Positions 14,471-27,249 of a stretch of 64,000 bases of DNA are shown here, piece after piece. Position numbers and translations under genes: made by a program. The notes beneath the pieces are model-generated. The model made no database searches, was not told the origin of the DNA, and saw nothing but the letters and a program-made list of their open reading frames with translations. Source of the stretch: Myxococcota bacterium (GTDB taxonomy: Bacteria > Myxococcota_A > UBA796 > UBA2385); assembly GCA_942491145.1 (NCBI GenBank), contig CALOBC010000038.1, positions 34,130-98,129 on the forward strand, given 5' to 3'. The number at the start of each line of letters is the position of its first letter. The stretch's first letter is position 1.

Positions 14471-15793
14471 TCAGTCCGGCAGGGGGAGGATCCACGGGGC
14501 GTGGGTCCATGAATGGCGGGCCTGGCGGGACAGATCCACCGTCGGGTCGATGAGCGGCGCGGGCGGTCGGCCGTTCAAGGACACCCGGTGGTCGACGTAC
14601 ACCGCGATCGTGTGCCCTTCGGCTTCAGCGTTGGTCCTCAGTCGCTTGGCGAGCAGCCAGATCATGTCGGGTTGGCCGATGATGGTGAGGCGCTGACGGT
14701 CCGAGAGCACGGCGCGCACATCGACCTCGGTGCTGTCGCCGCTGGTGAGGTCCACCGCGCGGAAACCCAGGGTGCCTCGCTTGGTGCGGAGCATCATTCT
14801 CCACGCGAACCGGTGGCCTTCTTCCGTCCATGACGGGCGCCCGGGGTAGGCGAGGTGCCGCAGGGGGACGACCACCTGAACGCCGATCCACAGGGCAGTT
14901 CCGGCGACGATGGCACGCGAAGGGGCTGCGCCCCGGACTGGAGCATGGGGGGCCCACCGGAGCACCCGCCGGGGCCAGCCCGGGTCGAGGAAGAGCAGAT
15001 GGGCGGCAAGCATCACGAGCGGGAAGATGCCAATGCGGAACAGCACGCCGTTGACGACGTGAAAGGCGCTGAGCGCAAGGATGGCGCCCATGCGCAGCCT
15101 CTTGGACAACAGCGCTGGGGCAACCAGCAAGTCCAGCACCAGCCCGGCGGCACTCATGGCCATGGCGGTCGGCGCCCACGCGAGCCAGGGGCCCACCCCA
15201 GGCCAGTCTTGACGGGCGTCGAGCCACATGCCGAGCGGCTGCCCGCTCAACCAGTCGGGGTTCAGCTTGGCCAGCCCGGCGAAGACATAGACCAGCACGA
15301 TGGAGATGCGCAGCATCCACAGACCGTGGGCCCGGGCCGGCGGTGGGGGGCTTCTCCAGCGGCGGTCGAGGCTGAGCACATGGTCGCAGGGGCTCAGCGC
15401 GAGCTCAACGCAGACCATGACCAGCAACACGTCGTGGTTGAGGTAGGCGGCTTGGTCCAGCAACAACAACCAGGCCAGCACCCCGGCGGTGAGACCGAGG
15501 GCGATCCGGGCGCCCAAGCCGAGCGCAATGGCGATGCCGAGGGCGGAGAGGCCCAGGTGGACGAGCACCATCGCGGCCAGGGACAAGGGCCGGAGGGCGT
15601 CGAGGTGGGGGTAGGGAAACGGCGGGAACGCCGGATCGTAGAGGGAGGCGATGCCCCCGCTGGCGATGATGCCCAGCGGCGCGACGGTCAGCAGCACGCC
15701 GAGCATGATCCGAAACACCGCAAGGGATGCGGGATCGAGTGGCCCACCGATGTTCTGCTCGATGGCGCTGGCGGTGGTGGAGACGTGCGACAT
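14471..15793 (-). CDS. HTTM domain protein, vitamin K-dependent gamma-glutamyl carboxylase homologue
   Basis: SLAVFRIMLG, YLNH, CDHVLSLD, YVFAGLAKLNPDWLSG, FRIGIFP, WTEEGHRFAWRMML; start at MSHVS. Confidence 0.88.
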   Translation of the reverse strand: MSHVSTTASAIEQNIGGPLDPASLAVFRIMLGVLLTVAPLGIIASGGIASLYDPAFPPFPYPHLDALRPLSLAAMVLVHLGLSALGIAIALGLGARIALGLTAGVLAWLLLLDQAAYLNHDVLLVMVCVELALSPCDHVLSLDRRWRSPPPPARAHGLWMLRISIVLVYVFAGLAKLNPDWLSGQPLGMWLDARQDWPGVGPWLAWAPTAMAMSAAGLVLDLLVAPALLSKRLRMGAILALSAFHVVNGVLFRIGIFPLVMLAAHLLFLDPGWPRRVLRWAPHAPVRGAAPSRAIVAGTALWIGVQVVVPLRHLAYPGRPSWTEEGHRFAWRMMLRTKRGTLGFRAVDLTSGDSTEVDVRAVLSDRQRLTIIGQPDMIWLLAKRLRTNAEAEGHTIAVYVDHRVSLNGRPPAPLIDPTVDLSRQARHSWTHAPWILPLPD

Positions 15794-15846
15794 GGGGGTG
15801 TGGGCGGGTATCTTGGCGGTCGATGCGGCGCACTGGGACCCGGCGC

Positions 15847-17979
15847 TCACCAAGATGCGGCGGCACCCTCCATCAAGAACAGGGAGCCCGTCGAGCCCGC
15901 GCCGCTGGCACCCAGCCAGAAGTCGGCCAGGCCGTCGCCATTCGTGTCGCCGGCCGCGGCCATCCCCCGCCCCAGATAGTCGTATTGGTCGGCACCCTGG
16001 ATGATCAGGTCCGCCTCGTCCGGCACGGTGCGGGTGCCCCCGTCGACGCTGCCCAAGATGCCGTAGACCCGGCCCACTTCGAGCTGGTCGCCGTCGTCCC
16101 ACTTGTGGGTGGTGACGAAGACGTCCGCCAGCCCATCGCCCGAGACATCGCCGAAGGCCCCGAGGTAGCGGCCCGTGTCGTGGTCGATGGTGGTGCCGAT
16201 GATGCGCCAGTGGGCGTCGCTCAGCGCGAGGTTGTCCCCGACGGTGCCCGAGCCCAGCGCCACATAGGCTGCCCCGGCATCCTCCAGGTCCAAGCCACCG
16301 TGGTCATAGCTGGGCGCACCGATGAGCACGTCATCATAGCCGTCCCCGTTGACGTCGCCGGCCCCCCGCAGCGCCGTCCCTGCCCGCTCCTGTTCTTCGA
16401 CCCCGTAGAACATGGGCATCTCTTCGAGGACCACAGGGTCCGCAAAGTCCTGGGCGGGGACCCTGTAGATCTCTCCACCGTTGCTGGTGGCATAGTCGGC
16501 GTAGGGCGCGCCGAGAACAACGTCCAGTGCGCCATCTCCGTCCATGTCACCGGCGGCCGCCATGCTGTAGCCGAGCTGGTCGTAGCTGGAGATGGCGTTC
16601 GTCACGACCATGTCGGCTTCGGTGCCCCCACCGGGAATCAACGTCACCGAGCCTTGGCTGGGACCCACCCGGTCGTCCCGGCGGGCGGACACCAGCACAT
16701 CGTCGAGGCCATCGCCAGTGACATCGCCCACGGCTACGCTGTCGTAGCCCCAGTAGGCATCGGTGTGGGAGAAGGTCGACGTGAACAGCGCGGCGCCGAC
16801 GGTCGTGCTGTTGTCGTCGGTGGAGAGGATGTAGACCTCACCGGTCTTGCTGTGGCTGTCGGGGGCGCCCACCACAAAGTCCTCGATGCCATCACCGTTC
16901 CAGTCGCCGATGAAGTTGAGCGCGTAGCCAAAGGCCCCATCCACGGCGGATCCGGTCCAGGTGCGCACCAGCGGCTCGTCCGGCCACTGGGTGCGGTCCC
17001 CCACGCCCACCGAACCGGGGAAGTACCCCACCCGGCCTTCGTCGAGGAGGGCTGCGGCCGGCGCGCTGACCAACACCTCGTGAATACCGTCGCCATCGAC
17101 ATCCTTGCTGGCCATGAACATCGAAAACGAGCCGTTGTCGAAGCCGATCCAGCCGCCCAGCATGTCTTCGGCGAGCACCACGTCGGGGGTGCCATCGCAG
17201 TTGCTGTCCACGGGGTCGTTGTAGTCGAGCCGGTGGGGGTGGATGTTGGGGTCGGTGTCGTCGCAGTCGCCAGACACCGCGGCCCCCTCGGGCAAGCTCG
17301 GGCAGAACAGGCCGATCTCGACGTCGGTGCCATACTCGTCGCCGTCGAGGTCCTGGTAGAGCGGAAGCTGGCTGAAGGGGTCGACGTCGTCGTCCTCGTC
17401 GTCCACCAGCCCGTCGCAGTCGTTGTCGATCGCGTCGCAGACCTCGTCGGCCGCCGGGTGGCGCAGCCAGTCTGTGTCGTCGCAGTCCGTGCCCTCGGGC
17501 ACCGCGCCGGTCACGTCCCCACACGCATCGATGGCTGCGCCGGGATCGCCCGCACCATCGCCATCTTGGTCGAGGTACCAGACCGCGCCGGGGTAGCGGG
17601 TGCTGTCGAGGTCATCGCAGTCGCCGTCCGTGGTCAAGTGGCCCATCGGGCGCAAGCACCCGGTCACCGCAGCGGCGCCATCCCCCAGGCCGTCGCCGTC
17701 GCCGTCGGGGTACCAGACTTGGCCGGGATGCTGCTCGGGATCGGTGTCGTCGCAGTCGTCGGCGTTGCTGGTGAAGCCCTCGGGCACGGTGCAGGACTGG
17801 GCCACGACGAAGGGATCACCCGCGCCGTCCCCGTCGGCATCGGCGTAGAAGCTGGACGGGGTGCACGGGGAGTCGTCGGTGGTCGGGTCCTCGGTTGTGG
17901 CCTTGCCGGAGTCGGTCCCACAAGCCGTCGTTCCGAGGGCCACTGCCCCCAGTGTGACCATCCAGAGTGCGCTGTTCAT
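15847..17979 (-). CDS. Lipoprotein with MopE-like repeats and FG-GAP (integrin-alpha-like) propeller
   Basis: Lipobox TTAC; repeated WYxDxDGDGxG...DCDD units; repeated GDxxGDGxxDhhhGAP motifs. Confidence 0.88.
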   Translation of the reverse strand: MNSALWMVTLGAVALGTTACGTDSGKATTEDPTTDDSPCTPSSFYADADGDGAGDPFVVAQSCTVPEGFTSNADDCDDTDPEQHPGQVWYPDGDGDGLGDGAAAVTGCLRPMGHLTTDGDCDDLDSTRYPGAVWYLDQDGDGAGDPGAAIDACGDVTGAVPEGTDCDDTDWLRHPAADEVCDAIDNDCDGLVDDEDDDVDPFSQLPLYQDLDGDEYGTDVEIGLFCPSLPEGAAVSGDCDDTDPNIHPHRLDYNDPVDSNCDGTPDVVLAEDMLGGWIGFDNGSFSMFMASKDVDGDGIHEVLVSAPAAALLDEGRVGYFPGSVGVGDRTQWPDEPLVRTWTGSAVDGAFGYALNFIGDWNGDGIEDFVVGAPDSHSKTGEVYILSTDDNSTTVGAALFTSTFSHTDAYWGYDSVAVGDVTGDGLDDVLVSARRDDRVGPSQGSVTLIPGGGTEADMVVTNAISSYDQLGYSMAAAGDMDGDGALDVVLGAPYADYATSNGGEIYRVPAQDFADPVVLEEMPMFYGVEEQERAGTALRGAGDVNGDGYDDVLIGAPSYDHGGLDLEDAGAAYVALGSGTVGDNLALSDAHWRIIGTTIDHDTGRYLGAFGDVSGDGLADVFVTTHKWDDGDQLEVGRVYGILGSVDGGTRTVPDEADLIIQGADQYDYLGRGMAAAGDTNGDGLADFWLGASGAGSTGSLFLMEGAAASW

Positions 17980-19331
17980 CGGCTCTCCAGCAGGGACAGC
18001 ACCGGGTCGGCGCGATAGTCAGCGACGTCGTCCTCCACCCCGATGCTGTGGAGCAGGCTGCGGGCGATGTGTTCATTCGTGAGGACTTCACCCGATGCCG
18101 CCACGGTGCCCGTGGAGAGGTCCACCGGCTGGGCTTGCATGCCGAGATCGGTGGTCCTGCCGATGATCTGGCCGCCCCGGATGCCGCCGCCCAGCAGCAC
18201 CATCGCGTTGACAAGGTTGTGGTCTCGGCCGCCATTGCTGTTCAAGGCCGCTTCCCGGGCGAACTCGCTGAGGCAGACGATGGTCGTGTGGTCCAGCCAA
18301 TTGTCGCCGGCATCCCCAAAAAATGGTGTGGCGGCGAGCTGGGTGGCGAGGGCGGCCACACTGTCGAAGCCTGCGCGCAAGTTGGGCCCATGGTCGCTCT
18401 GCCACTGGGCGCCGGCGTGGGTGTCCAGATCGCCGGTGGCCTCGAAGCTCACGCACCTCGACACGCCGTGGGTGAGCGCTTGGGCGGCCATCAAGGCCCG
18501 GGGACCCCCTTCGCCGGTGGTGCCCGAGTCCACGCCGAAGACTTCCCGCAAGGTCCGCATCTCGGCGCTGGCGGCGCTCAGGTCGAAGGTGGCCGCGATG
18601 TCGAGGTCGACGATGCTCCGGGCCGTCCGCCGATTGGCATAGATGTCGAGGGCACGGGGGGAGCTCGTGCGTGACTCCTGATTGGCGAAGAAGGCTTCCA
18701 GAGCAGCCCTCTGACCCTCGCCCACCGTCGTCGCGCCCGGGGAGAGCGCCTCGTAGAGGTCGTCCACCGACTCGGTGCCCAGGCCTGACGCCCAAGACGG
18801 GTGGCCCAAATTGAAGGACGGCATGCCACACACCAGGTTGGGGATCGGCTCGGACTCCCCCAGCAGTGCGGCCAGCAGCGTGGCCACCGACGACGCCCGG
18901 ACGGACGTGCCGGCGGGCTGCACACCGGTGAAGGCGTGGCGGCGGGCGACCTCGTGGGCAACGGAGCCCATCGTCATGCCCCGGACCACCGCGAGGCGGC
19001 TGGCGTGCTGGGCGAGATCCCCGATGAAGGGGCCGAAGGTCATGCCGGGCACGTCGGTGTCCACCAGCCAGTTGGCGGGATCGAGGTTGTCGACGGTGTC
19101 GTAGGCGGGCTCAATGCCGGTGTCGGCCCCCCGGCCGGTGGGGAAGTCGTCGGGGCTGCGGGGATCGAGGCCCAGCAGCATGTCCCAGCCGCCCTGAAAG
19201 TAGGCGAACACAAAGTAGCGGTCGGTCACCGTGGGCGTGGCCGCGCGCAGCCGCCGGGGAAAGCCACCGAGGCCGGCCAGCAGCCCACCGCCGGCCGCCA
19301 GCTCCAGGAATGTGCGTCGGGGGATGTGCAT
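17976..19331 (-). CDS. DUF1501 domain protein with Tat signal
   Basis: PRRTFLELAAGG twin-Arg signal; YFQGGWDMLLGLDP, DLDTH, LSEFARE, GGRDHN, LLGGGIRGGQIIG. Confidence 0.85.
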   Translation of the reverse strand: MHIPRRTFLELAAGGGLLAGLGGFPRRLRAATPTVTDRYFVFAYFQGGWDMLLGLDPRSPDDFPTGRGADTGIEPAYDTVDNLDPANWLVDTDVPGMTFGPFIGDLAQHASRLAVVRGMTMGSVAHEVARRHAFTGVQPAGTSVRASSVATLLAALLGESEPIPNLVCGMPSFNLGHPSWASGLGTESVDDLYEALSPGATTVGEGQRAALEAFFANQESRTSSPRALDIYANRRTARSIVDLDIAATFDLSAASAEMRTLREVFGVDSGTTGEGGPRALMAAQALTHGVSRCVSFEATGDLDTHAGAQWQSDHGPNLRAGFDSVAALATQLAATPFFGDAGDNWLDHTTIVCLSEFAREAALNSNGGRDHNLVNAMVLLGGGIRGGQIIGRTTDLGMQAQPVDLSTGTVAASGEVLTNEHIARSLLHSIGVEDDVADYRADPVLSLLESR

Positions 19332-19394
19332 GGGGGCCTCATGCTGGGGGAAGCGCACCACTCGTCGGACCGCCCGGGGGGCCACCGACGAGGG

Positions 19395-20072
19395 TCAGTA
19401 CATGAAGAAGTCGGGATGGGTGAACAGCGCCACACACACGGTCTGCCACGCGAGATCGGTCGAGTCGGTGCGTCGGTAGACCGTGGCAAACAGGTCCGCG
19501 GCGTCATCAATCAAGGGGTCTGAAGTGGCACGAGAGCGTCCATGGATGCGCCATCGTAGACCCGTCACCCCCGTCCTCACGGCGTCGAGCTCTGTGGAGT
19601 CGGGATCATCGAGGGTGTCGAAGTCCCCCGATGTTGCGGCGCTCCAGCCTGCGCAGGTGTGCACCGCGGCGTCGTCGAGGAACTTCTGAAACAGCACCGA
19701 GGGCGTGCGGTCGGTGGTCGTGCGCGTCTGGAAGTCCGCCACCCCCAGCGTCGCGGCGTACCGGTCCCAGTCGGAGCGCTCGTCGTCCCCCCAGACCACA
19801 CCCCCCGCGATGACCTGCATCGAGTCGCGGACTTGTGGGACGGTCATCCGCTTGCGCTGTCGGCGGTGGCTGGGCGGGCTGGCGGGCGCGGGCACCGGGA
19901 CTCCGTCGCCCAGGCTGGCATCGGGAAGGCTCTCTTCATCAATGTTCTCGATGGGACTGTCATCCCCAGGCTCGGTCGCCTTGCCCCCGCTGGATCCGGT
20001 CCCGCAGCCCATGATCGCCGCGCTTGCGAGCAGGGTGAGCCGCAGTGCCCTTGTGTCGTTGGGCCCGCTCAC
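19395..20072 (-). CDS. Lipoprotein resembling the DUF1587 and DUF1592 parts of DUF1592-family proteins
   Basis: Lipobox IMGC; RKRMTVPQVRDSM; C-terminal VCVALFTHPDFFMY; GTGA coupling to the upstream gene. Confidence 0.55.
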   Translation of the reverse strand: MSGPNDTRALRLTLLASAAIMGCGTGSSGGKATEPGDDSPIENIDEESLPDASLGDGVPVPAPASPPSHRRQRKRMTVPQVRDSMQVIAGGVVWGDDERSDWDRYAATLGVADFQTRTTTDRTPSVLFQKFLDDAAVHTCAGWSAATSGDFDTLDDPDSTELDAVRTGVTGLRWRIHGRSRATSDPLIDDAADLFATVYRRTDSTDLAWQTVCVALFTHPDFFMY

Positions 20073-21583
20073 TCCGCACCGTCCCAGTAGGACGCGCTGC
20101 GCACGACCCTGCGTACCAGCGCCCGGTAGTCCTCATCGGCATCAAAGGCCGCCGCCCAGTCCTCGATGTCTTCGTCCCGGGGCTCGGCGTCCAGCAACCA
20201 GTCGGTGGTCTTCGTGACCGCACACGTCGCGAGGGTGCCGTCCGCCCGCATCCGGTCGGTCCACCCCTGGGGCCCCTCGTCGGGATGCAACCCCTTGTCG
20301 CCCACCAAGAAGGCGTAGGGCCTCAGCACGCCCACGTAGGGGTCTTCGTCGGGATGGCTGGACTCGACGATGTAGTGGTCTTCGCACACGTCCGGGCAGC
20401 CCTCGGCGCTGTCGGCGCAGGTGGCACACACCGCGCTGAGCTCGGGAAATTCGTCGGGGGCCAGGTGGCGAGAGCCCGCTTGGGCCCACCGTCCCCAGTA
20501 CGCCGCCCAAGGCTCCAGTCGGGCGTGGCAGTCCCGGCACCCGCTGCGCACTTGCAGGTTCGGGGTCGGCAGCGTCCCCTCGGTCACCGGGTCCACGGGG
20601 CCCTCGGTGGGCAAGAATTCGGCGCACAAGAAGCCACCATAGAAGCGGTTGGCCCGACCCCGGTTGGTCTGGTGGCGCAGCAGCCATCCCGGCGCGGTGA
20701 GCACCCCCCGGCGGTGCTCGGGCAGGGTCACGGCGACGAAATTCGGGTCGCCATAGTCCAGCAGGGGAATGTCGGAGACATCGACTGGCACGTCATAGTC
20801 ATCGGTTCGGAACGCAGCCAGGTGGCGGAAGAAGTGGGCCGATGCGCCGTTGAGGTAGAGGGCATCGCCCGAGAACAGTGTGGTGTAGGGCGCCCCAGAG
20901 TCGAGCAGGGCCCGCACCCGGTGGTCGATGTCGGCCGCGAGCGCCGCTTCGATGGCGTCTTCCACGTCATTGCTGGCGCACCACTGCAGCGCCGGGCCAC
21001 ACCCGCAGCTCGCGTCGGTCTGGCCGGCTTCGGTGGCACAGTCGACGCCGGTGGTGGACACCGCGCTGAGCTGGGCGTCCAGCGCGCACACTTGGATGGG
21101 GGTCTCGGGGTCCCAGTAGGGCGCGACCCAGACCCAGCCCTCGGACCGGGTGCCGTCGGGGTTGGTCCGCCACGACAGCGGCCGGTTGTCCTCGTCCACC
21201 ACCGCTTCAGCCTCACCACAGTGCGCTTGGTTGGCCCCCCGCAGCGTCCGGGCCCGGGCGGAGGTGTAGTAGATGCCGCTGCGCCGGCTCAGGCGGCGGG
21301 CGTTGAGCAGCGTCAGCGACAGCGTGTTCCAGAACCGCTCTTGGTGCTCACCGACCACAATCTCGGTGAAGGCGGGCGCGGCCAGCCACGCGTCGAGGGT
21401 TGTGTCGTCCAGCTCGCCGGCGGCTTCGATGACCTCGAGCTCAGCGGCCGACGGCACCACACCCCGCACGTCCAGGGACACCGCACGCACGTAGCCGTGG
21501 AGGTCCTGGCCCGCGGCATCGGACCAGGGGTCGTCGGCGCCGGCCAGCACCATGACCAGGGGCATCAGAGCAACGCGTCTCAC
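20069..21583 (-). CDS. Cys-rich DUF1549/DUF1588/DUF1585-like protein with one CxxCH
   Basis: YVRAVSLDVRGVVPS, RRGVLTAPGWL..TNRGRANRFYGGFLC, CRDCHARLEP, YRALVRRVVRSASY; GTG start at 21583 overlaps the upstream TGA. Confidence 0.65.
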   Translation of the reverse strand: MRRVALMPLVMVLAGADDPWSDAAGQDLHGYVRAVSLDVRGVVPSAAELEVIEAAGELDDTTLDAWLAAPAFTEIVVGEHQERFWNTLSLTLLNARRLSRRSGIYYTSARARTLRGANQAHCGEAEAVVDEDNRPLSWRTNPDGTRSEGWVWVAPYWDPETPIQVCALDAQLSAVSTTGVDCATEAGQTDASCGCGPALQWCASNDVEDAIEAALAADIDHRVRALLDSGAPYTTLFSGDALYLNGASAHFFRHLAAFRTDDYDVPVDVSDIPLLDYGDPNFVAVTLPEHRRGVLTAPGWLLRHQTNRGRANRFYGGFLCAEFLPTEGPVDPVTEGTLPTPNLQVRSGCRDCHARLEPWAAYWGRWAQAGSRHLAPDEFPELSAVCATCADSAEGCPDVCEDHYIVESSHPDEDPYVGVLRPYAFLVGDKGLHPDEGPQGWTDRMRADGTLATCAVTKTTDWLLDAEPRDEDIEDWAAAFDADEDYRALVRRVVRSASYWDGAE

Positions 21584-22983
21584 AGGAAGCCCCCATGCTT
21601 CCAGGCCCGAATGGCCACGATGTTGTCCTCGGACAGCGACGGTCCGCCGAGGGGCATCTCGCCCGTGCTGACCAGCGCGATGATGGGGTCGATGTGGGCC
21701 CGCCAGGCGTCGGCCGAGTCGAGCCGTGTGGCCGTGTCGCCGCCGTGGCAAGCCGCGCAGTGGGCCGTGTGGATGGTGGCCACGTCGTCCCAGGTCACGT
21801 CCGGCAGGTCACCCACCCAGAGGGCTTGGGTGGAGATGTGGTCGCCCAGCGGAGACGTGGTCACAAAGCGCAGGGTGTGGTCCGGGCCCATGAGCCCCTC
21901 GGGATCGAGGGTGACCCGGTGGGGATCGGTCTTCAGCACCAGGCGCTGGTCGTCCACCCACACGGTCATGGTGGTGAGGGAGGCGGGGTCTGTGGGCAGC
22001 AGCTGCACGTCGGCCCGGGTCTGCAGCGAGGGGGGCAGGCCGACCACCGCGACCGGGCGGCCGAGGGCGTGGCGGACAAGGGCACCGTCGTGGAGCTGAA
22101 GCAAGCGACCGAGGGCATCCACGCCGATCACGGGGCCATCGGGCAGCGGCGTGGACACGAAGCTGTGGCCGTCGAGGTGGAACGCCGTGGTGGGACCGAT
22201 GGCCCACAGCGCGGGGCCCACAAGCTGGGTCACGGGCGCGGGAAGGACCACAGGCACGGCCAGACCTTCCCCGTCCACCCGATGAAGAGTGTCGTCGACA
22301 ATGGTCCACAGCACGCCATCTTCGTCGGTGGCGAGGGCTTGGAGTGGGGCGTCTCCTGCCCACAGTGTCTGAAGCTCGGGCCCCCGGCGGATGGCGACCA
22401 GCTGGGGCACCGACAGGTAGAGCATGTCGGCGGTGGCCGCGAGCGCATAGATGGTGGGATGGCCGTCGAGCAGCACCTCTTGGATGGTGTCCCCCGCCAC
22501 TTGGAACAGCCGCCCGGCGCCGGCCAGCCAGGGGGTGCCCCCGTGCTGAGCGAGGGCCTCGACCGGCACCGGAAGGCCCAGGTTGAGTGCGCTGACAACA
22601 CCGTCCTGAAGGGCATAGACGGCCCCATCGAGCGCGACCCAGGTCTCGCCCTCCACCACCATGGCCGCCAGAGACTGGGCATCGCTCAGGGCGGTGTGCA
22701 GCCCGGTGCTCTCGTCGACCAGCACGACGGTGTCGCCCTGTTGGCACAGCATCTGGTGGGCCACGATGGACGCGGCCCCGTCGCAGGCGGCGATGGTCTC
22801 GGTGAGGGCTGTCGTAGGGGAGATGGGCGGGCTGAAGACGACGGCGTCATGGGCGGTGTCGGTGGGCGAGACCCCCGAGTCTGAGCCCGTGGTCTTGGGG
22901 CCCGGGGACGCGCAGCCACAGAGCACGGCCAGGCAGATGGGGATGGGCAAGCGCGACACGGGGCCTCCCCTCCGGGCGGACAT
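21580..22983 (-). CDS. Lipoprotein with propeller-like repeats and a C-terminal class I cytochrome c domain
   Basis: Lipobox VLCGC; HCAACH heme motif with distal Met in GEMPLG and terminal IRAW. Confidence 0.75.
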   Translation of the reverse strand: MSARRGGPVSRLPIPICLAVLCGCASPGPKTTGSDSGVSPTDTAHDAVVFSPPISPTTALTETIAACDGAASIVAHQMLCQQGDTVVLVDESTGLHTALSDAQSLAAMVVEGETWVALDGAVYALQDGVVSALNLGLPVPVEALAQHGGTPWLAGAGRLFQVAGDTIQEVLLDGHPTIYALAATADMLYLSVPQLVAIRRGPELQTLWAGDAPLQALATDEDGVLWTIVDDTLHRVDGEGLAVPVVLPAPVTQLVGPALWAIGPTTAFHLDGHSFVSTPLPDGPVIGVDALGRLLQLHDGALVRHALGRPVAVVGLPPSLQTRADVQLLPTDPASLTTMTVWVDDQRLVLKTDPHRVTLDPEGLMGPDHTLRFVTTSPLGDHISTQALWVGDLPDVTWDDVATIHTAHCAACHGGDTATRLDSADAWRAHIDPIIALVSTGEMPLGGPSLSEDNIVAIRAWKHGGFL

Positions 22984-23185: not shown

Positions 23186-25933
23186 TCAGTTGGCGATCGA
23201 CTCGGGGGCAGTGACGCTCAAGCCGACCGTGGCGGCCGGGCCGACCACACCGGCGCCGACGAGGGCCGTGGCTCCACCGACGAGGGAGCCGCCGATGAAG
23301 GTGCCGTTGGCGAGGGCGGCCTCGAGGGTGTCGTCGACCGCCGCGCCGAGGACCACGCCTTCGGCAGGGAAGATGGGCTCACCGAGGTATCCGAGGGGGC
23401 TGCTGGCGAGCCCGGCCCCGCCGGTGACGGCCGGGGGAATGGTGATGTCGGTGCCGGAGAAGCCGAGGGGGCTGCTGGCAAGCCCGGAGCCGCTGACCAT
23501 GACCACGGACAGGTCGCCGAGGCCGAGCAAGCCGAGGGGGCTGCTGGCGAGTCCGCCGCCGCTGAAGGTCGCCTCATCGAAGTCGAGGTCGAGGACCGGC
23601 ACCACACCGAGGGGGCTGCTGGCGAGTCCGCCGCCGTCGAGGTCGAGGCTGACGGTGTTGGCCGTGGTGCCCGGAGGCAGGGCATCGATGCCGAGCACGA
23701 CACCCAGCGGGCTGCTCGCGAGACCGGCGCCCCAGTCGACGAAGGCGTAGGACGCAGCCATGTCGCCGAGGACGGGGTCGGTGCCGGCGTCCCATGCGAT
23801 GCCCAGCAAGGAGTCGGCGAGGTCGGTGTCCGCGGCGATGGCGGCCTGGAGGTAGGCGAGACCGTCGGTGGCGAACATGAGGGAGGTGGGGTGGTGGCCG
23901 ACATCATCGACGACGGCGGTGGTGACCTGGACGGCGAAGGCGCCGTTGTTGCCGGTGGATGAGGAGACTCGACCCCAAGGCGTCATCGTGCAGGTGCCGT
24001 TGGTGTCGGTGGTGCAGGTCTCCGCCGATGGGGACTCTCCGTGTTTCCATGCTTGGGCGTAGACCCGGGCGCTGGACACGGGGTTGCCATCGCTGTCCAC
24101 CACGGCGATCTCGAAGGATGGCGCGAGGCGGCTGCCCCGGGAGTCCATCCATGGCAGCACGCTGGTGTACAGCGGGCCCACCGCGGTGGGGAGGTCGTTG
24201 TCTTCGACGGCCTCCAGGCTCTCTTCGATGTCGAGCTCGCCGCTGCCGCAGCCGTTGCTCCAGCAGTTCTTGTCGACCCGCTGGGCCCCGACTTGAAGGG
24301 CCGCCACCACATCAAAGGGGGAGGCGCCCGCCGCGAGCAGCTGTGCGGCGGTGCCGCTCACGAGTGCGGCGGCCTGGCTGGTGCCGGCGTAGCTCCAGAG
24401 GCCGAAGCTGGTGGGGGCGGTGGGCGAGTAGGTCTCGGCGACCACGCCGTCTCCGTGGCCGTTGCGGTCCTGGTCTTCGTCGTTGTCCCCGCCGGCTGCC
24501 ACGATGTCGATGGCGAGGCCCCGGTTGGAGTAGTCGGTGACGTCGCCGCGGTGGCTGATGTTGGAGTTGTGCAGCGTGGTGGCACCGACGGCCACGACGT
24601 AGGGGCTGGCGGCGGGCCACAGCACCGTGGTGCCGCTGTCATTGCCGGCGGCGGCCACCATGACGATGCCGGCGTCCCGGGCGGCCGCGAGGGCGGCGTT
24701 CAGCGCTTGGGAGGGCAGGTAGTCTGCGCCGAAGGTGAGGCTCAGGTTGATGATGCTGGCGCCGTTGTCGATGGCGTGCCACAGCCCCTCGATGAGGTCC
24801 AGCTCGGTGCCGGAGTTGTTGGCGTCGAGCACCCGCACGGGCATCACGCTCACCCCGGGTGCGATGCCGAAGGCGCTGTCTTCACCGGCGATGAGGCTGG
24901 TGATGTGAGTGCCGTGCTGGTGGTCATCTTGGGGGGTAGCATCCCCGTCGATGATGTCGGATGGCGACACGATGTTGAGGTTCGCCAAGCTGGGGGCGGC
25001 CGATGCGCCCGATGCGGTGAGGGCGAGGCCGCTGTCGAGCACGGCCACGATGATGGAGGCGTTCGAGATGGGATCGGGCCCGAGGCCCAAGTTGCTGGAC
25101 CGCTGGCTCCAGTGGGGGTGCTGGCTGTGCTCCAGGTGCCACTGGTAGCCGGCGGTGGTGGCGACAGTGCTCGCGGCGGCGGCGGCCTCGACGTCGAGTG
25201 CTGCCAAGTCTGCCTGAGCGACGGTGAGGGCGGACTGGGCGTCGGTCAGTGCTGCGTCCGTGGTGTCCACCCGCAGGGCGGCCTCGTCGAAGGCGTCGAC
25301 CCATGCCTGGAGCGCGGTCCCGGTGAGGCCGTCGTCCATGGCGTCTTCCAGGTCCTCATCGGCTTCGTCGAAGGTGTCCTGGGCGTCGTTGAGCGCGTCG
25401 GTGGCCGACTCGACGTCCAGCTCCGCTTGGCTGACCGCGTCCTCGGCGGCGCTCAGGCCGGCCTTGAGCACACTCAGATCGGTGGACGCACCCTGCACCC
25501 GTCCCTGGGTGGACAGGGCCACGACGTCTGGGTCGCTCTTGAGGGCCTGGCGAGACTGGGCGATGCGCTCGACGGGCAGCTTCAGTCCGGCGAGGCCCGA
25601 CCGGCCGATGGCGCGAGAGACGGAGGCCCCGTGGCGGGCGGCGAGTGCCTGAAGGTCTGTCCCCGGGGTCACCTTCACCATGACCTCGTCGAGGATCCAG
25701 CTGGTCTCGGCGCGGGAGGCGGGCGCCTGACCGATGGCGCTGTTGCCGCTGCGGGTGGCGAGGGTGTTGCTGCCATGGGTGCTGCCGCTGGACCCGTGGT
25801 TGAAGTGAACAGTGTCCACGGCACCGGGTGGTCCGCCGGATGGCGCTGGATCATCGACGAGCTGGGTGCCCCCCAGTGTGGCGAGGCCAACAAGGGCGAG
25901 GGCGGCGGCGGCGTTCCGGGTCGTGGGCTTCAT
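23186..25933 (-). CDS. S8 (subtilisin-like) serine peptidase with coiled-coil insert and C-terminal GLASSPLG repeats
   Basis: Triad VAVLDSG, HGTHI, GTSQAA; oxyanion AAAGND; I9-like prodomain (DEVMVKV); N-terminal signal or anchor. Confidence 0.9.
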   Translation of the reverse strand: MKPTTRNAAAALALVGLATLGGTQLVDDPAPSGGPPGAVDTVHFNHGSSGSTHGSNTLATRSGNSAIGQAPASRAETSWILDEVMVKVTPGTDLQALAARHGASVSRAIGRSGLAGLKLPVERIAQSRQALKSDPDVVALSTQGRVQGASTDLSVLKAGLSAAEDAVSQAELDVESATDALNDAQDTFDEADEDLEDAMDDGLTGTALQAWVDAFDEAALRVDTTDAALTDAQSALTVAQADLAALDVEAAAAASTVATTAGYQWHLEHSQHPHWSQRSSNLGLGPDPISNASIIVAVLDSGLALTASGASAAPSLANLNIVSPSDIIDGDATPQDDHQHGTHITSLIAGEDSAFGIAPGVSVMPVRVLDANNSGTELDLIEGLWHAIDNGASIINLSLTFGADYLPSQALNAALAAARDAGIVMVAAAGNDSGTTVLWPAASPYVVAVGATTLHNSNISHRGDVTDYSNRGLAIDIVAAGGDNDEDQDRNGHGDGVVAETYSPTAPTSFGLWSYAGTSQAAALVSGTAAQLLAAGASPFDVVAALQVGAQRVDKNCWSNGCGSGELDIEESLEAVEDNDLPTAVGPLYTSVLPWMDSRGSRLAPSFEIAVVDSDGNPVSSARVYAQAWKHGESPSAETCTTDTNGTCTMTPWGRVSSSTGNNGAFAVQVTTAVVDDVGHHPTSLMFATDGLAYLQAAIAADTDLADSLLGIAWDAGTDPVLGDMAASYAFVDWGAGLASSPLGVVLGIDALPPGTTANTVSLDLDGGGLASSPLGVVPVLDLDFDEATFSGGGLASSPLGLLGLGDLSVVMVSGSGLASSPLGFSGTDITIPPAVTGGAGLASSPLGYLGEPIFPAEGVVLGAAVDDTLEAALANGTFIGGSLVGGATALVGAGVVGPAATVGLSVTAPESIAN
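23390..23725 (-). repeat. Five in-frame copies of GLASSPLG separated by 24-, 17-, 15- and 16-aa spacers
   Basis: The copies differ only at synonymous positions, e.g. GGT CTC GCG AGC AGC CCG CTG GGT versus GGA CTC GCC AGC AGC CCC CTC GGC. Confidence 0.95.
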
Positions 25934-26064
25934 GGGTCTCTCCTGCTGTGTGTCTCAACGGAGACGGAACGAGCCGGGGCGGATCCAATGACCTGCATGG
26001 GTTGTTTGGTGCAGCGCAGTCTCGGGTGCCCGTGGCCACCCCACGACCGTGCTACGGTCGGCCC

Positions 26065-27249
26065 ATGGCATCATCCAGCGCATCTTCCGAAGGCGTCGCA
26101 GTTCGGCTGTTGACCGATCTTCTCGACCGAGCATGGCGCGCTCGTGCTTCCGACTGCCACGTGGAGTGCCACGCCAACCGGGTGCGCACCCGCGTGCGTG
26201 TGGATGGCGTGATGGTCGACGACAAGGCGTATCCAATGGATGTGGGCTTGCAGTTGATCAACCGGATCAAGGTGCTGGCACGGCTCGACATCTCCGAGCG
26301 GCGGGTGCCCCAGGACGGGATGTTCCAGGAGTCGATGGCGAAGGGGCCGCCGATCACGCTGCGGGTGAGCACCTTTCCGACGCTTCACGGCGAGAAGGTC
26401 GTGATGCGGATTCTGCGCTCGGGCAGCCTGCTGCGCACCGCCCAGCTGGGCATGAACGGGGTGCAAGTGGCGCTGTGTCGGCAATTGTCGACGGTGTCCA
26501 ATGGGTTGGTGGTGGTGACGGGGCCCACGGGCTCGGGAAAGACCTCAACATTGTACGCATTGCTGCACCAGATCGACACACGGCGACGCAACGTGGTGAC
26601 CCTCGAAGATCCCATCGAGATCGAGCTTCAGGGGGTGAGCCAGGGCCAGCTCAACCGCAAGGCGGGCATGGACTTTGCGAGCGGCCTGCGGGCGGTCCTG
26701 CGGCAGGATCCCGATGTCATCTTGGTGGGGGAGATGCGGGACAAAGAGACCGCCGCCATCGCCATTCAGGCCAGCTTGACGGGCCACTTGGTGTTGACCA
26801 CGCTGCACACCAACTCAGTGCCCGCGACCATCACGCGGCTGGTGGACATCGGGATGGAGTCGTACATCGTGGCGGGGGCCCTGGAGGGATTGATCGCCCA
26901 GCGGCTGGTCCGGGTGTTGTGTGAGGACTGCGCGTTGCCGAGCTCACCCGATGACATTGCCCGAGACGCCGCCGATCTCGGCTTTCGCTTGGAAGTGGGA
27001 CCCGACGATCACTTTCGGTCGGCGTCCGGCTGTGGGGCCTGCATGGGTACGGGCTATCGCGGTCGGATGGGCATCTTTGAGGTAGTGGCTGTGGACGATG
27101 AACTTCGGGCAATCATAAAGCAGGGTGTGGGGATCTCCTTTTTCAAACAGTTCTTTGCCGTGCGGGGTATTCCGAGTCTGCGGCGGGCGGGTGTCGTGTT
27201 GGCCCGCCAAGGCAAGACGACGCTCGAAGAGGTCGTCCGCATGACCTGA
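26065..27249 (+). CDS. GspE/PulE/PilB family secretion ATPase (short form, no MshEN domain)
   Basis: ASDCHVE, LDISERRVPQDG, Walker A GPTGSGKT, TLEDPIE, LRQDPDVILVGEMRD, LTGHLVLTTLH, CEDC...CGAC zinc motif. Confidence 0.93.
   Translation: MASSSASSEGVAVRLLTDLLDRAWRARASDCHVECHANRVRTRVRVDGVMVDDKAYPMDVGLQLINRIKVLARLDISERRVPQDGMFQESMAKGPPITLRVSTFPTLHGEKVVMRILRSGSLLRTAQLGMNGVQVALCRQLSTVSNGLVVVTGPTGSGKTSTLYALLHQIDTRRRNVVTLEDPIEIELQGVSQGQLNRKAGMDFASGLRAVLRQDPDVILVGEMRDKETAAIAIQASLTGHLVLTTLHTNSVPATITRLVDIGMESYIVAGALEGLIAQRLVRVLCEDCALPSSPDDIARDAADLGFRLEVGPDDHFRSASGCGACMGTGYRGRMGIFEVVAVDDELRAIIKQGVGISFFKQFFAVRGIPSLRRAGVVLARQGKTTLEEVVRMT

Follow-up and report, generated by a model that had tools for sequence, protein, structure and literature searches.

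In a 64,000-nucleotide stretch of the genome of a Myxococcota bacterium (assembly GCA_942491145.1, contig CALOBC010000038.1, positions 34,130 to 98,129; hereafter the window, whose own numbering is used throughout), the gene located at 23186-25933 on the minus strand encodes a pre-pro-subtilase of 915 amino acids (aa) with a C-terminal repeat module. This module, the last ~230 residues, is an unannotated repeat tail that belongs to a single clade of S8 peptidases. While the protease is ordinary and of a known kind, the tail is new as far as the searched libraries and the searchable literature show, and defines a sizeable module family (about 240 clusters at 50% identity). This family evolves in an unusual way: a 10-residue loop is identical across the copies of a protein and changes between lineages, amid ordinary orthologous spacers. 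The explanation that we tentatively prefer, with a probability of roughly 0.45, is that the tail would be a folded accessory repeat domain showing identical loops for multivalent binding.

The uniformity of the loops within a protein implies that one partner reads all of them, be it a ligand, an enzyme that modifies the loops or the cleft of the protease itself; we thus infer a single kind of partner for each protein. If the loops bind, the tail would be a new domain by which secreted and possibly predatory proteases are targeted. If they are self-cleavage sites or released peptides, they would represent a new way to wire a protease to its substrate. The tail is also a good test case for selection for uniformity versus micro gene conversion.

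Five identical octapeptides at the end of an S8 peptidase

The octapeptide GLASSPLG is found five times in the protein, starting at aa 737 (aa 737-744; 23702-23725), 769 (aa 769-776; 23606-23629), 794 (aa 794-801; 23531-23554), 817 (aa 817-824; 23462-23485) and 841 (aa 841-848; 23390-23413), all on the minus strand. These are the five identical copies, at the same coordinates, that a sequence-only reading of this DNA had reported. Every copy is preceded by the Gly-rich pair described in that reading, in the form G-x (WGAG, DGGG, SGGG, SGSG and GGAG, respectively), and the spacers between successive copies measure 24, 17, 15 and 16 aa, in agreement with the announced 15-24 aa. A degenerate DNA pattern for GLASSPLG had five matches in the window versus 0.00 expected (100 shuffles), and no other motif-like peptide was found across the six frames of the 64 kb. 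Furthermore, a DNA repeat finder returned a five-member family with its similarity centred on the motif. A chance repeat or an assembly artefact is ruled out by the recurrence of the motif in hundreds of independent metagenome proteins.

Pairwise comparison of the codons of the five copies revealed 32 synonymous and 0 non-synonymous differences. Therefore, the earlier claim that the copies differ at synonymous sites alone is correct. The conclusion drawn from it, that selection acts on the peptide, holds in part: purifying selection is strong, but homogenisation at the DNA level also contributes, codon identity being above what codon usage would give. Likewise, the spacers that had been described as unrelated are indeed non-identical but keep a hydrophobic β-strand pattern, share a weak common pattern that ends in D-G-(T/S) and are orthologous by position throughout the family. 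At the codon level, the first Gly of the five copies is encoded by GGT, GGA, GGA, GGG and GGG, while 65% of the Gly codons of the gene are GGC; a codon other than GGC at this place may keep the GxG prefix free of long GGC runs.

The motif is uniform within a protein and changes between lineages

The homogeneity of the motif set and the substrate cleft were compared in 105 full-length proteins. The repeat consensus of the family is G-x-G-Φ-x-(S/T)-x-P-Φ-G (Φ, hydrophobic residue), with 2-8 copies per protein. A logo over all copies reads D(46%)-G(96%)-T/S(85%)-G(100%)-L/I(92%)-x-S/T(97%)-x-P(93%)-Φ-G(94%)-Φ, followed by a stretch with a hydrophobic pattern. On average, 0.39 of the 8 motif positions differ between copies in one protein versus 2.8 between proteins. 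The motif set is fully homogeneous in 72 of the 105 proteins, and most others have one odd copy. There are dozens of variants, among them GLSSSPLG, GLLSSPLG, GISTSPFG, GLGSCPLG, GLVTNPLG, GIVSDPLG, GLKSIPLG and GLGGTPLG; the cognate motif peptide of the window protein is GGGLASSPLGVV. The positions that differ between proteins are 2, 3, 4, 5 and 7. Turnover of the motif is fast, the same motif being shared by just 14% of the protein pairs whose S8 domains are 60-69% identical. Its edges are sharp: amino-acid identity among copies is ~1.0 within the motif and ~0.1-0.3 immediately outside. The spacers of different proteins can be aligned position by position, which means that the repeats are old and that uniformity is maintained in the core alone.

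Two processes appear to maintain this uniformity. Among seven genes, pairwise codon comparison of the copies gave 140 synonymous versus 5 non-synonymous differences. This indicates strong purifying selection, also at the positions that differ between proteins. Besides, codon identity among copies in 15 genes (1,103 comparisons) reaches 0.75 versus 0.47 expected from codon usage (0.61 versus 0.46 in the window gene), and this excess is highest at motif positions 3-6 and gone in the flanks. Therefore, homogenisation at the DNA level acts beside selection on the peptide. Moreover, in 6 of the 105 relatives, repeat 0, which lies in the segment ahead of the first motif (family consensus D-L-x-D-A-L-L-A-F-H-W), is replaced by a perfect copy of the protein's own motif variant. 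Together, the codon-identity excess and the overwritten repeat 0 point to exchange between copies over very short tracts, in addition to selection, the motif being homogenised over about 24 nt. The same motif Ser is encoded by TCC in all copies of one lineage and by AGC in all copies of another. The uniformity may result either from ancient conversion followed by synonymous drift or from parallel selected substitutions.

The tail is a family of its own

A full-length similarity search returned 175 relatives of the window protein, many of the closer ones carrying 3-6 copies of G-Φ-x-(S/T)-x-P-Φ-G in their tail. GLASSPLG-like repeats were then sought in other proteins with a profile built from 31 tails, by an index-free search of 1.84 billion cluster representatives (50% identity clusters). 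This profile matches 242 representatives at E<=1e-3, 118 of which reach 1e-30. Among the 150 matches listed, the module is always C-terminal, and an S8 domain is present in every protein longer than ~450 aa (107 of the 133 new matches). Stand-alone tail proteins were considered and rejected, the short matches being gene fragments. A word-index search found no match with the tail alone and three with the tail profile, the index being apparently swamped by low-complexity words. The window protein has the features of this S8-linked repeat-tail family, namely at least two motifs located C-terminal to the S8 domain and a β-sandwich and followed by GG(W)xT...GSGxV.

None of the libraries searched describes this module. 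A Pfam search with the 31 tails at E<=5 returned no family and, in particular, no LRR, RTX, PPC, dockerin or cell-wall-binding (CW_binding) match. With the full window protein at E<=1, no LRR, RTX or cell-wall-binding family was found and the tail was left unmatched; likewise, no NCBIfam family that matches the protein covers the tail. The tail profile has no match at E<=10 among the sequences of the PDB. A full-text literature search for GLASSPLG found no papers, and broader literature searches found nothing specific.

Every example of the module comes from a metagenome or an uncultured MAG, and Myxococcota is the most frequent name where one is given. In a scan of one genome per species, tail-bearing genes were confined to uncultured metagenome-assembled genomes (MAGs) labelled Myxococcota, Deltaproteobacteria, Pseudomonadota or proteobacterium. 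The cultured Myxococcus, Corallococcus and Archangium match the catalytic domain only and lack the tail. Three to four bins (L007, L009, L010 and L012; third-party annotation (TPA)-assembled MAGs) labelled uncultured Enterobacteriaceae or Enterobacterales carry a high-GC gene of Myxococcota type, and these labels look wrong.

Two loci harbor tandem paralogues of tail-bearing S8 genes: L004 (5001-7127 and 7561-9339, 72% identical) and L011 (389-2998 and 3314-5878). Within a pair, the motif variants are identical or almost so: both genes of L004 have GLVTNPLG, and those of L011 have GLVTAPLG and GLVTTPLG. In addition, the metagenome protein P0004, close to the metagenome protein P0002, lacks in frame everything between motif 1 and motif 5 and has a single motif left; either the motif copies recombined or the repeats collapsed during assembly.

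The tail is predicted to fold, with its motifs as loops

A full-length AlphaFold2 model of the window protein, built on 45 homologues, has a mean predicted local distance difference test score (pLDDT) of 82.6 and a predicted template modelling score (pTM) of 0.81. In this model, the tail is predicted to be ordered (pLDDT ~70-95), except for aa 792-797 and the last 17 residues (aa 899-915). Every motif is modelled as coil beside a β-strand, and in four of the five cases a strand comes right after the motif; those of the repeat region cover aa 743-748, 757-764, 777-785, 808-814 and 850-855. Copy 1 forms a loop leading into the first of these strands, copy 2 (pLDDT ~83) a loop between the second and the third, copy 4 (pLDDT ~78-80) a loop after the fourth and copy 5 a loop before the last. 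Copy 3 is the sole low-confidence copy, with a pLDDT below 50 at aa 792-797. In the DSSP assignment for this model, each unit has a single strand, and the motifs are classed as coil instead of β-ladder; this speaks against stacking of the motifs in a classical solenoid. A disordered linker was rejected on the basis of the β-strand pattern of the spacers and of the good pLDDT. The model thus favors what the sequence-only reading had put forward as its alternative, a motif that would be the turn of a novel β-repeat or binding fold.

In the explanation that we prefer, the tail would be a folded accessory domain in which the Gly, Pro and hydrophobic residues of the motif would shape the loop, while the positions specific to a lineage (mainly 3 and 5) would point outward. 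The resulting row of identical sites would bind one repetitive partner, such as a polymer of the cell surface or matrix or a repeated substrate, and would so anchor the protease at its target. Exchange of sequence between copies at a micro-scale would help to keep the loops alike, and nothing need be cut out. Since multivalent binding needs identical sites, it would explain that all copies change together as the motif drifts. We favor binding because it covers the predicted order of the tail, its ordinary spacers, its variable copy number, its uniform lineage-specific positions and the lack of a link with the cleft.

Several observations weigh against binding by a folded domain. When the tail is modelled alone (27 sequences), the pLDDT falls to 56 and the pTM to 0.37; the order seen in the full-length model may depend on docking of the tail to the body of the protein, or may reflect the deeper full-length alignment. 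In a few proteins of the family, adjacent motifs have almost no strand between them, and irregular motif spacing is more in line with a free-standing linear motif than with a regular solenoid. The module is restricted to one protease clade, which is not required of a generic binding domain, and the motif resembles a good subtilisin substrate. Finally, no ligand of the tail is known or predicted. From one motif start to the next, 20 aa is the commonest period in the family; the first interval mostly measures 30-32 aa, and the values span 10 to 53 aa (23-32 aa in the window protein). A Foldseek search with the low-confidence tail-only model gave noise only, with no match at E<=0.001.

Among known folds, the tail is reminiscent of the 20-residue choline/cell-wall-binding repeats and of the bacterial leucine-rich repeats (LRRs) of 20-22 residues. 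As in these families, the commonest period is 20 aa, a strand is combined with a conserved return loop, and copies vary in number in an accessory module of a secreted enzyme. However, none of the 31 tails matches the LRR, CW_binding or RTX profiles, spacing is irregular in the tail family and Gly is invariant in the motif at positions that are unconstrained in LRRs. Furthermore, the "variable" positions of the tail are uniform within a protein, which is atypical for cell-wall-binding repeats and LRRs. Two local resemblances were also rejected. An EF-hand or dockerin-type calcium site in D-L-D-G-T-G does not fit, as the Asp positions are unsuitable and the Asp at -3 is present in 46% of the copies only, and the order of residues is wrong for the DTG motif of aspartic proteases.

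Does the enzyme's own cleft read the motif?

The catalytic domain of the window protein (aa 293-560; 24254-25057, minus strand) was delimited by alignment to subtilisin BPN'. Pfam PF00082 matches it at aa 293-538 (E 3.5e-35; 122.2 bits versus a cut-off of 21.8), which assigns the protein to family S8. The residues D300 (25034-25036), H340 (24914-24916) and S519 (24377-24379) align to D32, H64 and S221 of BPN', and N431 (24641-24643) to the oxyanion residue N155, all on the minus strand. This triad, in the order Asp-His-Ser, and the oxyanion Asn are kept in 105 of 105 family members, and from these residues the window protease is predicted to be catalytically intact.

One alternative is that the loops are substrate-like for this catalytic domain: the exported protease would cut its own extension there, in cis or in trans, and would thereby trim or shed the tail or relieve latency, the released pieces being waste. 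In the corresponding register (P6-Φ, P4-(S/T), P2-Pro, P1-Φ↓P1'-Gly, P2'-Φ), the cut would fall at (S/T)-x-P-Φ↓G. In canonical binding to subtilisin, P1, P2 and P4 contact the enzyme and P3 points toward solvent, and AAPF and AAPL are standard subtilisin substrates. By analogy, S-S-P-L↓G would be similar to these classic substrates, and a motif conserved at positions 2, 4, 6, 7 and 8 and at the next residue and variable at positions 3 and 5 would fit the subsite logic of subtilisins. The motif is also autonomous, with sharp edges, arbitrary spacing and variable copy number. Moreover, the module is fused to this S8 clade alone, whose cleft is unusual and nearly invariant (E104, F128, H62, D97 and N100 in BPN' numbering). 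E377, L380, L399, F401 and L411 of the window protein are invariant or nearly so, and the near-invariant cleft positions of the family further include, in BPN' numbering, L107, L126, L135, Y189 and Q222.

Other data do not fit cleavage by the own cleft. Mutual information between motif positions 2, 3, 4, 5 and 7 and 603 well-aligned columns is high solely for other motif copies. The variable cleft columns (BPN' 101, 103, 127, 153, 156, 166 and 217) do not covary with these motif positions, a result that is not decisive with ~100 related sequences. Self-recognition also gives no account of the uniformity, within a protein, of P3 and P5, which face solvent, and some lineages have a β-branched Ile or Val at the putative P1. 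In addition, order is predicted for the tail. The junction between prodomain and mature enzyme is conserved (P-x-G-R-x-x-G-A) and unlike the motif; the idea that this junction shares the motif was rejected. All in all, self-cleavage at the loops is the main rival of binding, possible but less likely.

Subtilases that lose a C-terminal extension are known. The extensions of aqualysin I and of proteases with PPC domains are removed autocatalytically. NisP, like the window protein a secreted S8 enzyme with a C-terminal extension past its catalytic domain, offers a documented precedent, since it removes its C-terminal portion by autocleavage (PMC10885120). Unlike the window tail, the extensions of NisP, aqualysin I and the PPC-domain proteases are not built of several identical substrate-like loops, and the window tail matches neither PPC nor any other known extension family. 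A more elaborate proposal makes the tail a built-in multi-copy cleavage cassette: the enzyme would cut its own (S/T)-x-P-Φ↓G loops and would so control activation or release, or free several copies of a short lineage-specific peptide as a signal akin to a pherotype, the motif set being kept uniform by concerted evolution. We regard this proposal as improbable.

The tail as a hypothetical precursor of peptides or substrate of modification

The sequence-only reading had proposed a fusion of protease and precursor that frees variable peptides, in the manner of a peptide that is made on the ribosome and modified after translation (RiPP): the motifs would be recognition sites and the variable spacers core peptides released by the enzyme, as PatA and PatG do on PatE. 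S8 proteases do process multi-core precursors (PMC10885120). The window system and the cyanobactin system also have in common an S8 protease and identical short motifs that flank non-identical segments, here of 15-24 aa. Besides, GLASS is superficially like one of the published sites of cyanobactin precursors, G(L/V)E(A/P)S, the other being AYDG (PMC10885120). However, GLASSPLG differs from both sites, and AYDG is absent from the window protein. The PatA/PatG model TIGR03895 scores 62.2 bits versus a cut-off of 421. The model for type VII secretion mycosins, TIGR03921, likewise stays below its cut-off (119.3 versus 278.75 bits). Moreover, in contrast to the cyanobactin system, the repeats are fused to the enzyme and are predicted by the full-length model to be folded, and there is no macrocyclase insert, heterocyclase or gene cluster.

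The spacers themselves do not look like variable cores. Compared with the two closest orthologues, they are 41% identical, while identity is 48% in the β-sandwich, 50-52% in the post-repeat segment, 62-69% in the pre-repeat part and 64-65% in the catalytic domain. From these alignments, the spacers appear to evolve like the neighbouring non-catalytic domains; they are not hypervariable, remain positionally orthologous and keep their β-strand pattern. Furthermore, conserved tailoring or export genes are absent around six loci (the window and L001-L005), where we found no heterocyclase, transporter or other RiPP or pat-like gene conserved beside the S8 gene. With spacers that are not hypervariable, a tail predicted to be ordered, no match to PatA/PatG, no RiPP genes and no covariation of motif and cleft, this fusion finds no support and is extremely improbable.

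Conversely, the motif itself, or a piece of it such as ASSPL, could be the product, freed in identical copies as a lineage-specific signal. Copies identical within a protein and quickly diverging between lineages are indeed expected of multi-copy pheromone precursors; yeast α-factor with Kex2 and the Phr peptides are examples of multi-copy precursors. Kex2-processed repeat proteins are reportedly a case of S8-based processing of tandem repeats and would provide a precedent. Like these proteins, the α-factor precursors and the enzyme-fused RiPP precursors (borosin, BURP-domain), the window protein combines an S8 protease or fused enzyme with tandem identical short peptides. However, the window tail has no dibasic sites, its repeats lie inside a domain predicted to be folded and it has no known product. 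Its most conserved residues, Gly and Pro, look like loop scaffolding. Two cuts per copy would be needed, inside or at the edges of the conserved block, and in the six loci the gene has no linked genes for a receptor or for export. Release of the motif as a signal is thus highly improbable.

The motif could also be a sequon, its invariant Ser/Thr being modified, for instance by a general O-glycosylation system, in a way that would shield the tail against proteases or serve adhesion. Among the copies, 97% have Ser or Thr at position 4 and 93% have Pro at position 6. The context is rich in Ser, Ala and Pro, and such contexts are typical of bacterial O-glycosylation sites. However, no glycosyltransferase or oligosaccharyltransferase is conserved nearby in the six loci, and modification leaves unexplained the invariant flanking Gly and hydrophobic residues as well as the exclusive fusion to one protease clade. 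Hence, we consider it very unlikely.

Other domains of the window protein

Upstream of the repeats, the protein resembles known pro-subtilases. Its N-terminus is a signal-peptide-like segment (MKPTTRNAAAALALVGLATLGG; ~aa 1-24; 25862-25933, minus strand) without lipobox Cys, which, as read from its residues, is probably a Sec signal. AlphaFold2 predicts a helix at aa 4-21 and then a low-confidence linker (aa 21-74). It is followed by an I9/fervidolysin-like prodomain (aa 79-148; 25490-25699, minus strand), modelled as a βαββαβ unit with a pLDDT above 90. The fervidolysin-type prodomain family PF22148 matches marginally at aa 69-137 (E 3.6e-4; 21.3 bits versus a cut-off of 21). Foldseek with the full-length model ranked pro-subtilisin E, fervidolysin and pro-Tk-subtilisin (pro-Tk-SP) at places 1-6, with 1r6v at E 1.4e-19. 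The window protein, fervidolysin (PDB 1R6V) and the pro-subtilisins share an I9/fervidolysin-like prodomain, an S8 domain with the D-H-S triad and a β-sandwich after it. In contrast, the GxGΦx(S/T)xPΦG module has no counterpart in these proteins or in any PDB chain, and they lack a helical hairpin of ~100 aa that the window protein has between prodomain and catalytic domain. This acidic hairpin (aa 154-254; 25172-25474, minus strand) is predicted to consist of two helices (aa 154-200 and 205-254). It can be aligned only in a few close relatives (P0002, P0003, P0005 and P0006); P0011 has a similarly long insert, and the remaining family members have a short low-complexity linker at this place.

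The catalytic domain is followed by a β-sandwich similar to immunoglobulin (Ig) domains (aa 589-689; 23867-24169, minus strand), predicted as all-β with a pLDDT above 90. The Pfam families Big_1, DUF7382 and CarboxypepD_reg give sub-threshold Ig-like matches at aa 607-651, and the Cys residues at aa 640 and 648 are invariant in the family. The pre-repeat part of the tail (aa 690-734; 23732-23866, minus strand) comprises a helix, the degenerate repeat 0 (DLADSLLGIAW) and a short β-meander; its W714 is nearly invariant. Beyond the five copies, the post-repeat segment (aa 849-898; 23240-23389, minus strand; pLDDT 67-89) is conserved. Its family consensus in tail alignments is ...G.P.xL...G..L...L..GG(W).T..G...A..L.GSG.V, and the stretch right after copy 5 (Y/F-x-G-E/D-P-I-L/F) is conserved across the family.

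The C-terminal end is variable (aa 899-915; 23186-23239 including the stop codon, minus strand), with a pLDDT of 25-33 and 12-29% identity to orthologues. A C-terminal transmembrane anchor was rejected, as homologues have charged residues in this Gly/Ala-rich end. Pro is the last residue in 31 of the 105 proteins, about 10 of which end in aromatic-x(1-2)-Pro (VRFDP, VHWVP, VQWLP, VQFLP); such endings may be a sorting or processing signal. The window protein ends in ...APESIAN, without a C-terminal Pro.

Gene neighbourhood

The neighbours of the S8 gene differ between the six loci, and no conserved partner gene was found there. In the window, the genes downstream of it encode a DUF1501 protein (17976-19385), a 560-aa protein without Pfam match (20069-21751) and a protein of 467 aa carrying a cytochrome c domain at its C-terminus (21580-22983), all on the minus strand. 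Upstream and divergent lies a gene for an ATPase of type II secretion system/type IV pilus (T2SS/T4P) type (25828-27249, plus strand; PF00437, E 2.5e-112). These four genes are not conserved next to the homologues. In three of the six loci, a secreted protein with FG-GAP and MopE-type (PF11617) domains is encoded within a few kb of the S8 gene (15847-17979 of the window, minus strand; 10613-12904 of L002; 9805-11532 of L004), and the family member P0039 itself carries PF11617. This proximity could correspond to a loose functional association or to the mere abundance of such proteins in Myxococcota. Further downstream, an open reading frame (14471-16102, minus strand) combines an HTTM domain with the lumenal domain of a vitamin-K-dependent γ-carboxylase (E 6e-58 and 7e-41), that is, a member of a eukaryote-like carboxylase family in a bacterial contig.

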